Below, piece after piece: positions 10,929 to 38,588 of a stretch of 64,000 nucleotides of DNA. The notes under the pieces were generated by a model. That model saw only the letters and a list, made by a program, of their open reading frames with translations. It was not told where the DNA came from and did no database searches. Origin of the DNA: Faecousia sp. (GTDB taxonomy: Bacteria > Bacillota > Clostridia > Oscillospirales > Oscillospiraceae); the NCBI GenBank assembly GCA_051867135.1, contig JBJDYH010000223.1, positions 11,597 through 75,596 on the forward strand, written 5' to 3'. Made by a program: the position numbers and the translations under genes. The stretch's first letter is position 1; each line of letters begins with the position of its first letter.

Positions 10929-11693
10929 GTGGAAGAATTCTTACGGCTGAAGGAAATTCTCCTGAACGGCGGTACGCTGAGCTTTTGGGAGGATTTCTAT
11001 TATAAATTCTACCAAGCGTTTATCTACGCTGACCGGTGGAAGCAATATCTAAGCGGTGTTTTAACAACCCTTGAGGTTACCGCTCTGGCTCTGATCATCG
11101 GTGTGTTTTTGGGCGTTCTGGTTGCCGTTGTGCGTACCGCTCACGATCAGCAGAGAGCCGGCCGCCACAACCCCTTCTTGGGCATTTTTAATTTTATTTG
11201 TAAAATCTATACCACCGTTATCCGCGGAACGCCCATGCTGGTTCAGCTTTTGATTATGGGCTTTGTCATCTTCAGCTCCAGCCGGGAATTTAATTTCATC
11301 GGTACTCTGACGCTGGGTATTAACTCCGGTGCCTATGTTGCCGAAATTATTCGCGGCGGTCTTATGTCTCTGGACCCCGGTCAGGCAGAAGCCGGCCGCT
11401 CTTTGGGGCTTGGCTATGTGGATACCATGCGTTTTATTGTGATTCCCCAAGCCTTCAAAGCCATCCTTCCCTCTTTGGGCAACGAATTTATTACCCTATT
11501 GAAAGATACAGCTTTGATTTACACCATCGGTGGTAAGGAGCTGGTGTATGCGGCTCAGCATGTAGCTACCCGTACCTATGAGCAGATGTTCCCGCTGGTT
11601 GGTACTGCCGTTATTTATCTGATTCTGGTCCTGATTTTCACATGGCTTCAGGGTATTCTGGAAAGGAGGCTGCAGCAAAGTGATCGACGTTAA
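10929..11693 (+). CDS. Polar amino acid ABC transporter permease
   Basis: [32 protein letters not shown]; GTG start after AGAAAGGAG (the upstream ORF extension is MITE sequence). Confidence 0.93.
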
Positions 11694-12402
11694 AAATCTC
11701 TCCAAATCCTTTGGAAAGCATCTTGTGTTGGACAATATCAGCGAGCATATCGCGCCCGGCGAAAAGGTTGTAATTATCGGCCCCTCCGGCTCCGGCAAGT
11801 CCACTTTTTTGCGCTGCCTGAATTTGATGGAAACCCCATCTGCCGGAACTATCTCCTTTGACGGTACTGTGATTACCAACCCCAAGGTGGATATTGACCT
11901 GATTCGTCGCCAGATGGGCATGGTATTCCAGCACTTCAACCTCTTCCCGAACATGACTGTTCGCAAGAACATTACCCTTGCCCCTGTTCGTACCGGCCTT
12001 ATGAATAAGAATGAGGCGAACGAGCTGGCTATGCAGCTTCTTCGCCGTGTTGGGCTTGAGGACAAAGCCGACAGCTATCCCAATCAGCTTTCCGGCGGTC
12101 AGAAGCAGCGCATTGCCATTGTTCGGGCGTTGGCTATGAACCCCAAGGTGCTGCTGTTTGACGAGCCTACCTCCGCCCTGGATCCTGAAATGGTTGGAGA
12201 AGTGCTGGCTGTTATGAAGGAGCTGGCGAATGACGGCATGACCATGGTTGTGGTTACCCACGAAATGGGCTTTGCCAGAGAAGTTGGCAGCCGGGTGCTG
12301 TTTATGGATGAAGGAAAAATCATGGAGCAGGGTACGCCTCAGGAGATTTTCTCTCAGCCCAAGAATCCCCGTTTGCAGGACTTCCTGTCTAAAGTTCTAT
12401 AA
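11680..12402 (+). CDS. Polar amino acid ABC transporter ATP-binding protein (GlnQ/ArtR-like)
   Basis: [29 protein letters not shown]. Confidence 0.95.
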
Positions 12403-29532: not shown

Positions 29533-31361
29533 TGGCGAATCCCAACCTGATTGGCGGCGGCCGCTACACCCGCTCCGAAGCCAGCGGCGACAAGCGCCAT
29601 TTTTCCAACACCCCCCTGAACAAGGGAAAGATTCTTCTCCGGCTGTGGCGGTATCTGGGCCGGAACCGGGTGCTGCTGGCGCTGGCGCTGGTGCTGTCCG
29701 TCACCAGCAGCCTGCTGTCGCTGTACGGCCCCAAGCTCTCCGGCCGGGCCATCAACGCCATTGATGTGGGGACAGGGCAGGTGGATTTTGACACGGTGTT
29801 CCGCTGCGCCGCCCTGATGGCAATATTCTATGTCTGCTCTGCCATCCTGACCTATCTTCTGAACGTGGTGATGATTCGCCTCTCCCGCCGGGTGTCCAAG
29901 CAGATGCGCCACGATGTATTTGAGAATCTGACTGCCCTTCCCGTGGGCTTTTTCGACCGGTATCAGACCGGCGATATCATCAGCACCATTACCTACGATG
30001 TGGACACGGTGAACCAGTCCCTGTCCTCGGACTTGTTGCAGCTTTTGCAGAGTGCCGTAACGGTGACGGTGTCCTTCATCATGATGCTGACCATTGCCCC
30101 GGCGCTGGTGCTGATCTTCGTGGTGACCATTCCGGTGACGGTGCTGTTTACCAAGTGGCTGACAGGCCGCGTGCGGCCCCTGTTCCGGCGACGCAGCGCA
30201 AAGCTTGGGCAGCTGAACGGCTTTGTGGAAGAAATGCTCTCCGGCCAGAAAACCGTCCGGGCATACGGCCGGGAAAAAGCGGTGCTGGATTGCTTTGACG
30301 AAAAGAACGGTGCGGCGGTGGATGCCTACACCGTGGCGGAAGCCTATGGCACCGTCACGGGCCCCTCCGTCAACTGCATCAACAACGTTTCTTTGGCTCT
30401 CGTATGCGTGTTTGGCTCCCTGCTGTTTTTGCGGGGAAGCATCGGCCTGGGAGACCTCTCCAGCTTCGTCCAGTATTCCCGGAAATTCTCCGGGCCCATC
30501 AACGAGGCTGCCAACATCATTTCCGAACTGCAGAGCGCCTTCGCTGCAGCGGAGCGGGTGTTTGGCCTGATCGACGCGGAGCCCGAAGCCCCGGACGCGC
30601 CGGATGCACGCGTGCTGGAAGCCGTTCAAGGGGATGTGGAGCTGCGGGATGTGGACTTTTCCTATGTTCCCGGCACGCCCATCATCCAGAACCTGAATCT
30701 GCACGCGGAGCCCGGCAGCCTGACGGCCATCGTAGGCCCCACCGGCGCTGGCAAGACCACCATCATCAACCTTCTCATGCGCTTTTACGATGTGGACAGC
30801 GGAGCCGTGTTTGTGGACGGACAGGACATCCGGAGGATTACCCGCTCTTCCCTGCGCCGATCCTATACCATGGTGCTACAGGACACTTGGCTGTTCCACG
30901 GCACGATTTTTGATAACATCGCCTACGGCAAGCCCGGAGCTACCATGGAGGACGTGGTTAAGGCCGCGAAAGCCGCCCACATCCATTCCTACATTTCCCG
31001 CTTGCCCCAGGGCTATGACACCGTGCTCTCCGACAATGGCACCTCCATCTCCAAGGGACAGAAACAGCTACTTACCATCGCCCGTGCCATGCTTTTGGAC
31101 GCCCATATGCTGATTCTGGACGAGGCCACCTCCAATGTGGACACCCGTACCGAGCTGCAGATTCAGGCGGCCATGCGGCAGCTAATGAAGGGAAAAACCT
31201 GCTTTGTCATTGCCCACCGGCTGTCCACCATCCAGGCGGCAGACCACATTCTGGTGCTTGACCAAGGCAAAGTGGTGGAGCAGGGCAATCACGAGAGCCT
31301 CATGGCCCAAAACGGCTTCTATCGGCGGCTTTACGAATCCCAGTTCGATTCGGCAGGCTAA
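29532..31361 (+). CDS. Heterodimeric ABC exporter subunit (TMD+NBD)
   Basis: GPTGAGKTT, ISKGQKQ, LDEATSNVD, IAHRLST. Confidence 0.93.
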   Translation: MANPNLIGGGRYTRSEASGDKRHFSNTPLNKGKILLRLWRYLGRNRVLLALALVLSVTSSLLSLYGPKLSGRAINAIDVGTGQVDFDTVFRCAALMAIFYVCSAILTYLLNVVMIRLSRRVSKQMRHDVFENLTALPVGFFDRYQTGDIISTITYDVDTVNQSLSSDLLQLLQSAVTVTVSFIMMLTIAPALVLIFVVTIPVTVLFTKWLTGRVRPLFRRRSAKLGQLNGFVEEMLSGQKTVRAYGREKAVLDCFDEKNGAAVDAYTVAEAYGTVTGPSVNCINNVSLALVCVFGSLLFLRGSIGLGDLSSFVQYSRKFSGPINEAANIISELQSAFAAAERVFGLIDAEPEAPDAPDARVLEAVQGDVELRDVDFSYVPGTPIIQNLNLHAEPGSLTAIVGPTGAGKTTIINLLMRFYDVDSGAVFVDGQDIRRITRSSLRRSYTMVLQDTWLFHGTIFDNIAYGKPGATMEDVVKAAKAAHIHSYISRLPQGYDTVLSDNGTSISKGQKQLLTIARAMLLDAHMLILDEATSNVDTRTELQIQAAMRQLMKGKTCFVIAHRLSTIQAADHILVLDQGKVVEQGNHESLMAQNGFYRRLYESQFDSAG

Positions 31362-31635
31362 GAAACGCCGAGCTTGGCGGAATGTTGCGGCAAATCCACA
31401 GCGTAATACCCGGCATAAAAACGGAACGCCCTGCCGAGCATCGGCATCTACGATAATAATTGCCCACTTTCTTTCTGTCAGTTCCCATCATTCCATATTC
31501 ATAAGAAACGCCCAGTACAACCCGAATCCGGGATGTACTGGGCGTTCTCATTACGAACTTTACTGTCCTTGAAATACTCCTGTTGCGCCTTGGATAACTC
31601 CCGGCCTTGGGTATCCAAAGCTTCTCGGGATGTCT

Positions 31636-31872
31636 TTACTGTTCGCTCTCCTGTTCTTCTTCCTGTTTCCGCCGAGAAGATATTTGCAAGCACACTTCGT
31701 AAAGCTGGGCTGGTGTTGCGTCCAGATGGGACTCCATGAACTCTCCCATTTCCAGCATATCCTCGGGAAGCTCCAATTCCGCTACCATTGACAGAACTTG
31801 CAGTTTGCTGCATCCGTATTCTTTCAACAAATGTATGAGCATCTTCTGCTCTTCCGTTAATGACACGCTCAT
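31636..31872 (-). CDS. Nested small acidic protein (+1 frame inside the polyvalent fragment)
   Basis: SD GGAGGAG 7 nt before ATG 31872; aligns with 32182-32379 product. Confidence 0.7.
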   Translation of the reverse strand: MSVSLTEEQKMLIHLLKEYGCSKLQVLSMVAELELPEDMLEMGEFMESHLDATPAQLYEVCLQISSRRKQEEEQESEQ

Positions 31873-32181
31873 TTTCATACTCCTCCATTGCCATCTTCGT
31901 AAAAAGATGTTCGTTATTTGCTTTTCTGCCTATAGATACATACAGCAAAGTGTTATCATCTGTGATGCATATACCAAATAAGATATTTCCTTTGCTTTTT
32001 TCAGAGAAAACATTACTGTTAGAAGTTAATTGTGTGCCTCTGTTGTTATTGATTAGGTATTCTACCCTTGATTTTTCTTGCTTAGTTAAATTGGGAACCC
32101 AATGGCCATTTCTGCTGTAATTTACCTCTCCATCCACCAGCGGCTCCCTGCCTTGAGAATCCAAAGCTTCTCGTGAGAAAT

Positions 32182-32379
32182 CTACTTTTGGCTTATTTCC
32201 GCTACTTTTTTCAGAATTTTCGGAGTTTTTGCCATCTCGTTTTCCGCCATCCATTCCATCAGAGCGCACTGCTGTTCCTCGGTTTCCATTGCGGATACTA
32301 TCCCAACTATAGCGTCCTTTTCCACGCCGAAAATGCGAAGTCCAACTATTAAATGCTTTTGAATGTTCGTAAGTTCCAC
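32182..32379 (-). CDS. Nested small protein (+1 frame), paralog of 31636-31872
   Basis: SD GGAGG 9 nt before GTG; shared LTxxQKxLIxxLxxxGxxK..E..ExM..A..IS pattern. Confidence 0.7.
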   Translation of the reverse strand: MELTNIQKHLIVGLRIFGVEKDAIVGIVSAMETEEQQCALMEWMAENEMAKTPKILKKVAEISQK

Positions 32380-32630
32380 TTTCTAAGGCCTCCGTAAAAT
32401 TATCGATCGCAACCCGGTTCTTTTTGGTGATGCTAACTTTTACAAGGATTGTATAGTCCATAAAAGACTGATTGCTGTAAATATAGAAATAACCTCTAGT
32501 ATAGGCATACCATTGAGCAGGAAGGTCATTGTGAAACTGCCGCAACCTTTGGAAACAATTGTTATCCATCGTTTCTAGTTCAATGCTCCTACCGCCCGGC
32601 AGATATTTCAGAAAGTGTGCATCTTGGGGG

Positions 32631-32735
32631 TTGATTTCTCAGAATATATCTGCTAAACTGTATTTAGGAGCTGATATCAGGGAGGGGGCTTGATCGTTTT
32701 CAGGCGCACTCCCCACGACATCGGCTTCTATTTTG
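32631..32735 (+). ncRNA. Putative antisense small hairpin RNA with sigma-A promoter
   Basis: TTGATT(32631)-17-TAAACT(32654) with extended TG; stems 32665-32678/32717-32730 and 32680-32693/32700-32713; T tract. Confidence 0.6.
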
Positions 32736-32820
32736 TCATCGCAACAGCCAAAAATAACCTTCCTCCAACATCCAATGTCATTAAGTTGGTGACATTGGTA
32801 TTACTGCCGCTGCATTTTTT

Positions 32821-33079
32821 ACCTAAATTCCACAAAAATTATCATATACACGGTGGTTTTCAAAAACTTTTTTCGCAAATTATGTACATTAATTCCGATA
32901 AATCCCACGTTTTCTGAATAATTTATAAAATATTGCCAGAAAAATTTTTGTGAATAATTAACATATACCCAAAAGAAAAAAGCGACTCGAAAAGTTTAAT
33001 ATTTGAACAATTTTTGTGTAAAATAGTAAACAACTTCTTAAAAAAGTTTTGTATATGATAATTCTTGAGAAATTTAGGT
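32821..33079. repeat. 30-bp inverted repeat pair (27/30 identical) around an AT-rich spacer
   Basis: 32821-32850 versus 33050-33079 (tgtatatgataattyttgwgraatttaggt). Confidence 0.75.
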
Positions 33080-33217: not shown

Positions 33218-33250
33218 AATACCTGAAATCGTAGGATTTCAGGTACTTTT
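33218..33250 (-). terminator. tRNA-Pro terminator
   Basis: tacctgaaatc-gtag-gatttcaggta plus A tract. Confidence 0.8.
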
Positions 33251-33326
33251 GGTCCGAGTGACTGGATTCGAACCAGCGGCCTCTTGAACCCCATTCAAGC
33301 GCGATACCAAACTTCGCCACACCCGG
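33250..33326 (-). tRNA. tRNA-Pro(GGG)
   Basis: 77-nt cloverleaf: CCGGGTG/CACTCGG acceptor, CTTGA-ATGGGGT-TCAAG anticodon arm, GGTTCGAATCC, encoded CCA. Confidence 0.96.
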
Positions 33327-37094: not shown

Positions 37095-37850
37095 TTATCT
37101 GGTTCTGGGACGGCGGGATGCCTTCTGCCGCTGCATAGAAAGGAACACACCGGCACCAACAGCCCCAGCAATACAAAGAATGTACAGATAGAAGCCAACA
37201 CTGGGGGTTAGCTTAATCAGGCTGCGCAGCTCGCTGGGAATACCGGACTTGGTGGCCAGAGAAGTAAAAAACCACGCCAAGAAAGCGCCAAGCACCGCTG
37301 CGGCAGAAATGCCCATGTAGTTGTTTTCACGCCGCCATGCAAAATATGCCACAAGGGCAGGCGCTGCAATCAGCACAAGATACATCGCCAAGGCGCAAAA
37401 ATACCAAAAGTTCAGCTTGCCAAGGTCTCCCAAACAGGAGAAGAAAGCATGGAACAAAGAAGTGCTGTCGGAGGCCAGAGGCGTAGAAACCTTAAACCAA
37501 GGCAAAAGCAGGCAAATAAAAGCCAGAGCAGCAGCGCCAATGGGGGCCAGCTCCACACCCTGCGGATTACGCTTTTTGCGTCTGCGAATATGGCTCTGTG
37601 TACCATGCCCGGCTTGGGAGGTACGGGCAGGCCGGGAATTAGGGGTAGGCTGTTCATAAACAGGCTGTTGGCTGTAAGCGGGCTGCTCATAAGAAGGTTT
37701 GTTCTCGAAAGAAGGTTGCTGCACAGGGGCCTGAACTTCCACGGATTTCTCCTCATAATCGTCCAGAGACACGCCCGTTAATACCGCGCCGCAAGAGACA
37801 CAGAAAACATCCTCTTCGTTATTTTCAGCGCCACATTTCGTACAAAGCAT
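37095..37850 (-). CDS. Zinc-ribbon domain membrane protein
   Basis: CTKCG..FCVSCG, Pro/Gln linker, four TMs with LPW and GFYLY. Confidence 0.8.
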   Translation of the reverse strand: MLCTKCGAENNEEDVFCVSCGAVLTGVSLDDYEEKSVEVQAPVQQPSFENKPSYEQPAYSQQPVYEQPTPNSRPARTSQAGHGTQSHIRRRKKRNPQGVELAPIGAAALAFICLLLPWFKVSTPLASDSTSLFHAFFSCLGDLGKLNFWYFCALAMYLVLIAAPALVAYFAWRRENNYMGISAAAVLGAFLAWFFTSLATKSGIPSELRSLIKLTPSVGFYLYILCIAGAVGAGVFLSMQRQKASRRPRTR

Positions 37851-37946: not shown

Positions 37947-38588
37947 TTATTTCTTCTCGTTCAGGAAGCAAACAACGGCGTATGCTGCCATGCAAATAAT
38001 GTACAGATAGAATCCAAAGCCCATCTTGGCATACTTGGAAAGCCCGGACATTGCAGCGTCTGCGCAGGCATCCCAAACGAACAGCGTAATAAGGGCCAGA
38101 ACCGCACCGCCAATCGCAGCAAACTTGCCGTAAGCTACCTTCTTTGCGGCAGCGAACAGGCAGAAGCCAACAACAGCAATGCAGACAAGGCTAAGCAGAG
38201 AAAGAAGCACATAGCTGAAGCCGGCGTCCCAAGAGTCAAAATCAAATGCAGCCGTAAAAATAGACACAGAATCGGATTGGCCGAAAATAGACACTACATA
38301 CCAAGGCAGGAAAAGGCAGATCACAGCGATGCCGGCGGCAACAATAGGAATCATCGCCATAATATTGGACTTGGGCATGCCGGAATTGCCGGAATGATTG
38401 GGGGTGTATCCAGCCCTGGGAGTATAGCCCGCATTGGGGGTATAGCCTGTGTTGGGAGTGTATCCCGTGTTAGGGGTATAACCGTTAGTGGGAGCTGCAG
38501 GCGCAGCGGCTTGCCCCATAGGAGAACCACAGCTGCGGCAGAACTTTGCGCCGTCGTCATTTTTCGCACCACATTTACTACAGAACAT
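37947..38588 (-). CDS. Zinc-ribbon domain membrane protein with GYTPN repeats
   Basis: CSKCG..FCRSCG, five 18-bp GYTP(N/R) repeats, four TMs with LPW and GFYLY. Confidence 0.8.
   Translation of the reverse strand: MFCSKCGAKNDDGAKFCRSCGSPMGQAAAPAAPTNGYTPNTGYTPNTGYTPNAGYTPRAGYTPNHSGNSGMPKSNIMAMIPIVAAGIAVICLFLPWYVVSIFGQSDSVSIFTAAFDFDSWDAGFSYVLLSLLSLVCIAVVGFCLFAAAKKVAYGKFAAIGGAVLALITLFVWDACADAAMSGLSKYAKMGFGFYLYIICMAAYAVVCFLNEKK

Follow-up and report, generated by a model that had tools for sequence, protein, structure and literature searches.

The remnant in the window and its surroundings

The window, a stretch of 64,000 nucleotides from a contig of Faecousia sp. (JBJDYH010000223.1), carries on its minus strand a long open frame in which two smaller genes are nested one base out of phase. 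The features of the locus are listed below by their positions in the window, in the reading direction of the minus strand.

33250..33326, minus strand: tRNA-Pro(GGG), upstream of the remnant
32639..32641, minus strand: in-frame TGA closing the remnant at its upstream end
31499..32638, minus strand: long open frame of 379 codons, left over from a giant phage polyvalent-protein gene, with two cassettes of module and nested gene
32381..32593, minus strand: module A, about 71 aa, in the host frame
32389..32393, minus strand: GGAGG Shine-Dalgarno-like (SD-like) site of nested gene 1, 9 nt ahead of its GTG
32182..32379, minus strand: nested gene 1 in the +1 frame, 65 aa, GTG start, predicted four-helix protein (pLDDT 95)
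32144..32176, minus strand: copy 1 of a 33-bp repeat, encoding SREALDSQGRE; start of an ART-PolyVal leader that is broken off, module B continuing
31874..32110, minus strand: predicted module B, about 79 aa, in the host frame, with a weak RelE/ParE/BECR-like fold
31882..31886, minus strand: GGAGG SD-like site of nested gene 2, 9 nt ahead of the ATG at 31872
31636..31872, minus strand: nested gene 2 in the +1 frame, 78 aa, ATG start, of the family of gene 1 (26% identity)
31598..31630, minus strand: copy 2 of the 33-bp repeat, encoding SREALDTQGRE, 29/33 identical to copy 1
31547..31615, minus strand: ART-PolyVal leader, ending before the domain proper (tblastn to relatives and Pfam on those hosts)
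31507..31546, no strand assigned: hairpin with 18-bp arms between the remnant and a convergent ABC-transporter gene, at which the host homology stops

Both +1 open reading frames of the original prediction are present inside the long frame, and GGAGG lies exactly 9 nt before each start; nested gene 2 has an additional in-frame ATG at 31878. The long frame itself had been described as a frame of 356 aa, which has to be corrected, as the 379 open codons are the truncated remnant of a polyvalent-protein gene several thousand codons long. No ATG, GTG or TTG occurs in the frame from the TGA to position 32569. The ATG at 32569 is the only one in the remnant and unlikely to be the true start of the frame, because it is positioned inside the first module and the closest GGAG ends 16 nt upstream. 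Given the upstream in-frame TGA, the single ATG within module A and the end in the ART-PolyVal leader at the hairpin, the window copy is a truncated chromosomal remnant in which both small genes are intact. The hairpin is likely a terminator. The remnant sits among host genes and is 61% identical over residues 15-161 to an 1820-codon frame in another genome (G150), module A being 73% identical to the module of that host. The long frame obtained no Pfam match, the leader being its sole ART-PolyVal part, and the frame upstream of the TGA (32642-32800) gave no useful match in the fetched loci; we take it to resemble the end of a polyvalent domain.

The prediction had also placed a 33-bp repeat 6 bp behind each nested stop. 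The two copies are real, but the gap is 5 bases at both. Their identity of 29 positions can be compared with a best value of 23 and a mean of 21 when the codons of this region were shuffled 60 times. What the repeat encodes is the leader found ahead of ART-PolyVal domains, and within the genome it is confined to the window's contig. A conserved DNA junction repeat shared by the whole family, as had been envisaged, is therefore not borne out; in relatives, only a loose host motif of the [F/Y]S[L/R] type tends to follow the nested stop. Repeat copy 1 would fit a single local event at the border of the domain, either a recombination or a duplication.

An assembly chimera was ruled out by a single contig from another run that spans 31203-31728, from the end of the ABC gene into nested gene 2. 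Another contig covers 31543-31728 and 31901-32444 with a diverged stretch of the same length in between. The homolog P0003 is identical to nested protein 2 at 23 of 47 positions in the front part and at 29 of 31 behind, a pattern that suggests allele exchange. One contig of 159 nt from an RNA library covers 31689-31847 and provides a weak hint of expression. The sequencing runs contained at most 16% of the query words and were not used to derive a habitat.

The DNA past tRNA-Pro(GGG) varies within the genus (loci L107-L111), with a type I methylase-like gene in L107 and rplS-like genes in both L108 and L110, and in L103 and L104 other neighbours adjoin the ABC pair; together, these differences identify a variable insertion site. 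A 72-aa Lar-like zinc-finger gene (PF14354; 33413-33631, minus strand) is kept upstream of the tRNA across the genus. The interval from tRNA-Pro to the remnant contains an AT-rich stretch of 199 nt flanked by inverted repeat arms of 30 bp (90%; 32821-32850 and 33050-33079), and similar arms were found in contigs C158, C182, C250 and C379 of the genome. For this inverted repeat, a miniature mobile element is conceivable, as is a regulator site. Further away, an 18-bp tandem repeat (38397-38486) encodes GYTPN(T/A) in a zinc-ribbon-like membrane protein, a paralog of which is adjacent at 37095-37850.

The nested gene family and the frame that overlaps it

The two nested proteins had been reported to align to each other. 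Their similarity is significant by Smith-Waterman comparison (score 67; shuffles 26.6 +/- 4.7, none of 5000 reaching 67), though BLASTP of one against the other returned no alignment, and both fall into a single family alignment. The two proteins have 20 and 3 close homologs, respectively, and a family profile retrieved 385 clusters at 50% identity among 1.84 billion; it had matches in 16 of 400 further genomes from the order and in 21 of 399 from the class. AlphaFold2 predicts four helices (pLDDT 95). Searches with the small proteins in Pfam, PHROGs, PADLOC and PDB sequences yielded nothing convincing, the ESM Atlas contained only unnamed clusters (below 0.9), and a fold search returned generic helical bundles (best Z 7.7) with no match to a known antitoxin. 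The GenBank phage collection gave no match to host, partner or module queries, and IMG/VR gave none with single ORFs and one locus with the family alignment. These comparisons indicate that the small proteins form one four-helix family without prior annotation. Among the homologs P0049, P0094, P0140 and P0137, two tandem four-helix copies or a fusion into a multidomain protein of 379 aa were observed, P0137 being the one fused to other domains.

Removal of duplicate loci (L002-L012, L024, L041, L049, L071 and L079) left 64 distinct family hits, 62 of which have a start codon, the window's two genes counted in. The overlapping -1 (host) frame is without stops in 55 of these 62 genes, where 0.8 would be expected by synonymous recoding, and closed in the other seven; the third frame is stop-free in none. 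Among the open cases, 31 are located in frames of at least 600 codons within the fetched DNA and 19 are short remnants like the window copy. GGAGG was found ahead of 31 of the 62 starts, a count inflated by a choice of starts that favoured SD-bearing ones, compared with 12 of 1048 control +1 ATGs in the hosts, and its spacing to the start is 9 nt in 26 of the 31. An ATG is present at the family N-terminus in 56 of 62 cases. The family conserves the nesting and the frame as well as the start and its SD-like site.

Selection on the two frames was compared by codon position, and the outcome favours the nested frame. In 38 pairs of nested genes (45-98% nested identity), which were picked and aligned in the nested frame and are related rather than independent, the nested third position varied more than the second in every pair (means of 0.35, 0.27 and 0.51 for the three positions). 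Protein identity amounted to 52% for the nested and 35% for the host frame and was higher for the nested protein in 37 of the 38 pairs. This codon-position pattern and the higher nested identity mark the small gene as the more constrained frame. Both frames are kept open and selected in the family, as is expected of an embedded gene, and selection appears to act mainly on the nested one. The overlap is also visible in the host protein, as the composition of its G/R/S/N/D-rich "linker" correlates at r=0.94 with that of the -1 shadow which the nested proteins cast, the nested SD site reads as Glu codons and the nested ATG falls within an Asn-Gly pair in 21 of the 55 open cases. The low-complexity "linker" of the host is the compositional shadow of the nested gene.

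The reverse relation, in which a low-complexity linker is conserved and the +1 ORFs arise by chance as its shadows, could draw on the BLASTP result for the two ORFs and on shuffled host codons, which leave the +1 frame open 7.6% of the time. It conflicts with the codon-position pattern and the higher nested identity, the conserved start and SD site, the confident four-helix model and a stand-alone partner gene in the prophage L081 described below; this explanation is largely refuted already, and its probability is considered negligible. Only marginally more credible is a programmed +1 frameshift that would fuse module and nested ORF into one truncated protein, so that no separate small protein exists. 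SD-like sites just upstream can stimulate +1 shifts, as is the case for RF2, and such a site is present here. The ATG at the family N-terminus, the 9-nt spacing typical of initiation and the separate partner gene of L081 all point to a protein of its own, and inspection of the upstream stretches by eye revealed no conserved slippery site.

Upstream modules and a two-gene unit

A module of about 75 aa is situated upstream of each nested start, and these modules fall into five clusters and one singleton. Where both flanks were present (34 genes), similarity between nested genes goes along with that of the module upstream (rho 0.41), which 41 of 42 close pairs have in common, and not with that of the sequence downstream (rho 0.03), common to 5 of 42. 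The proposed unit of a short module and an overlapped partner gene is supported by this co-travel, and the comparison indicates that both move together as a cassette, with the caveat that adjacent genes co-travel through linkage alone. A profile of module B matched 8 of 300 genomes of the family and uncovered five new loci, all five with a partner; in four of them, the partner lies in an open host frame and in one behind a broken module. Overall, the partner follows directly downstream in 51 of 51 module hits, the adjacency that is characteristic of RelE/ParE type II toxin-antitoxin pairs, and one partner family pairs with at least five divergent module clusters.

The small proteins might instead act alone, for example in host defence or transcription, and stand beside a module because both are inherited as one DNA block. 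Modules are at least 70% covered in 7 of 19 remnants versus 34 of 36 long hosts, a comparison that is partly circular as remnants are defined by their short frames. The seven closed -1 frames and the fusion of some homologs to other domains (P0137) likewise agree with an independent role. This possibility is judged distinctly improbable in view of the strict adjacency in all 51 module hits, five of which were found without the partner, and orphan immunity would leave the same remnants.

The structural model of module B consists of a helix, four strands and a helix (pLDDT 88); the BECR core of PBECR nucleases comprises an N-terminal helix and 4-5 strands. In a fold search of 48,161 chains, its best ten rows were ParDE1, Cami1, PrpT, RelBE1, HigB2, RelE, HigBA, a CDI toxin, RelE and a CDI toxin, all ten of them toxin folds of the RelE/ParE/BECR class, and the titles of 23 of the best 50 rows denote toxin-antitoxin, CDI, colicin or Cami1 toxin entries. 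We take all toxin entries in this list to share the BECR fold. The best match, ParDE1, reached Z 5.0 (rmsd 2.3, 60 aligned), which is under the tool's level for more than a common arrangement, so that no single row is significant, and Foldseek detected nothing at E<=0.001. The model of module B points weakly to a RelE/ParE/BECR-like fold, every Z being 5.0 or below, and the module, which had been called "effector-like", looks weakly toxin-like.

Active sites of PBECR nucleases contain a His (or Arg) from the N-terminal helix along with a C-terminal Ser/Thr, as described in the parts consulted of PMC5512222. The modules lack such a site: neither of the module alignments A5 and A7 has an invariant or nearly invariant His, Arg or Lys, an invariant Thr occurs only in the former, and no module has a PBECR Pfam match. 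This leaves a ParE-type, non-catalytic toxin as the only kind that would fit; toxicity without RNase residues is possible for this fold, as ParE shows (PMC11980606, in part). Modules A and B are weakly similar by HHalign (probability 18%, E 0.0014), and the HHalign comparisons of mixed modules A6 with A7 and of A5 with a PBECR1 domain were not significant. Searches of the modules in Pfam and PHROG identified no family, those in PADLOC and PDB sequences nothing convincing, and a module A profile found one weak match, with stops, in 400 genomes across the phylum.

An un-nested form of the unit does exist. In L081, a gene of 114 aa carries an A-type module at its end and its stop falls at the SD-like site of the partner, which starts 11 nt later as a separate gene; TGGTATAAT lies upstream of the unit and a hairpin with a T-run downstream. 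By analogy, this arrangement corresponds to the layout of a toxin-immunity pair, in which the toxin gene usually comes first and a small immunity gene follows (PMC5576092, in the parts consulted). L081 is the only un-nested unit of module and partner seen, and one case does not fix the direction of change. The same prophage contains a 180-aa gene whose N-terminus is similar to that of the 114-aa protein and which carries a PBECR1 nuclease domain. The small prophage genes at 11549-12098 and 13936-14478 of L081 have a common "HPR..GxF" N-terminus and differing C-terminal domains (the type A module and PBECR1), and the pair looks like a small polymorphic effector set.

Giant host proteins and candidate toxin-immunity cassettes

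Intact hosts are phage polyvalent proteins of 2,500-3,650 aa with the Pfam domains ART-PolyVal, PBECR3, LPD3, MuF_C and LPD38. Unrelated conflict domains are combined in the 2576-aa protein of L015 (ART-PolyVal, PBECR3 and LPD3), as is typical of polyvalent proteins; in L083, genes for portal and internal virion proteins are located upstream of a host of about 3000 aa, and the 3,650-aa gene of L048 lies on an IMG/VR viral contig. Hosts contain up to four cassettes (L080), with three in L082 and two in L083. In L020 (9635-10118, minus strand), an ART-PolyVal start is fused, with nothing in between, to a type B module's second half, the nested partner being intact; this is a recombination junction inside the module.

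We consider it probable that these units are toxin-immunity cassettes, in which the four-helix proteins provide immunity against the predicted RelE/ParE-like module upstream and the cassettes are chained by read-through. Loss of the stop codon of a module, by its replacement with sense codons, would let the host frame run through the partner gene and produce a G/R/S/N-rich "linker" there, so that each cassette in a stack could keep its partner. While the phage grows, the small protein would be made from its own ribosome site and neutralise its module; we infer toxicity of the module, binding by the partner, translation of the nested gene and the direction of this change. The module would be delivered with the virion protein, the antidote being locked to its domain. 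The window copy would be a captured remnant and at most orphan immunity.

A rather unlikely alternative accepts the genes as real and assumes that the small protein binds a non-toxic module of the giant virion protein, serving as a chaperone, as a packaging adaptor or as a regulator, the window copy being a neutral remnant. The absence of a conserved catalytic residue in the modules and the weak fold match of module B agree with this assumption, and nesting and co-travel fit any obligate partner. The dominance of toxin folds in the list for module B, the toxin-partner layout of the two-gene unit in L081 and the service of one partner family to at least five divergent module clusters favour immunity, as immunity families often serve divergent toxins.

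The units would combine two known kinds, a toxin-immunity cassette and an embedded gene. In the lambda Rz/Rz1 spanin system, a phage gene likewise contains a functional partner gene in its +1 frame; this system is a single lysis pair, in contrast to the repeated and shuffled cassettes within a multidomain protein described here. With RelE/ParE type II pairs (PMC11980606, in part), the cassettes share the toxins that rank first for the module B model and the toxin-first two-gene layout of L081; they differ in the lack of sequence similarity, in the fold scores of module B (Z<=5.0) and in a partner that is a compact four-helix protein without a match to a known antitoxin. In MuF phage polymorphic toxins, a toxin domain carried by the phage is likewise followed by a small immunity ORF downstream, and delivery from the virion is presumed (Jamet et al. 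2017, PMC5576092, in part). Their toxin is C-terminal and their immunity gene separate, whereas modules here are internal, several per protein, and it is the frame of that protein that overlaps the partner. The MuF N-terminal Pfam domain was absent from the 12 proteins scanned and MuF_C was present in three hosts only, which differs from the MuF toxin architecture. The cassette hosts resemble the polyvalent proteins of PMC5512222 in their length of several thousand residues, their ART-PolyVal, PBECR3, LPD3, MuF_C and LPD38 domains and their position near virion genes. In contrast, the consulted parts of that paper name no nested partner genes, and neither the cassette modules nor the partners have a Pfam or PHROG match. 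The words "overlap", "linker" and "low-complexity" had 0 matches in its main text, and a full-text literature search, judged by title and abstract start, retrieved no description of nested genes in polyvalent proteins.

If the immunity reading is true, it would account for the ability of giant phage proteins to house several toxic domains internally and to shuffle them with the matching antidote retained, as well as for the origin of their G/R/S/N-rich linkers. It points to a family of small proteins, several hundred in number, and to at least five clusters of modules, which gene callers hide when the host frame is intact, and supplies a rule for finding new effector-inhibitor pairs, namely to search immediately behind a domain in the frame shifted by one base. 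Toxin-antidote overlaps that are natural and fully nested would also be a ready model for engineered gene entanglement.

More tentatively, with a probability somewhat short of even, phage polyvalent proteins could be whole toxin-immunity operons strung in one frame, with a hidden domain-by-domain immunity code, from which gut Clostridia capture pieces that act against toxins injected by phages, as orphan immunity arrays. Remnants captured by hosts have been described, as have cassette-like ORFs in the vicinity of a polyvalent gene, and the consulted parts of the same paper propose that hosts keep captured pieces for defence (Iyer et al. 2017, PMC5512222). As the loci were found by way of the partner, they do not show partner genes to be enriched in chromosomal remnants. 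Further chromosomal remnants without phage genes around them were observed in L084, L085, L087, L090 and L092, at the 3' ends either of ABC-transporter pairs or of another gene, which presumably encodes glutamine synthetase.
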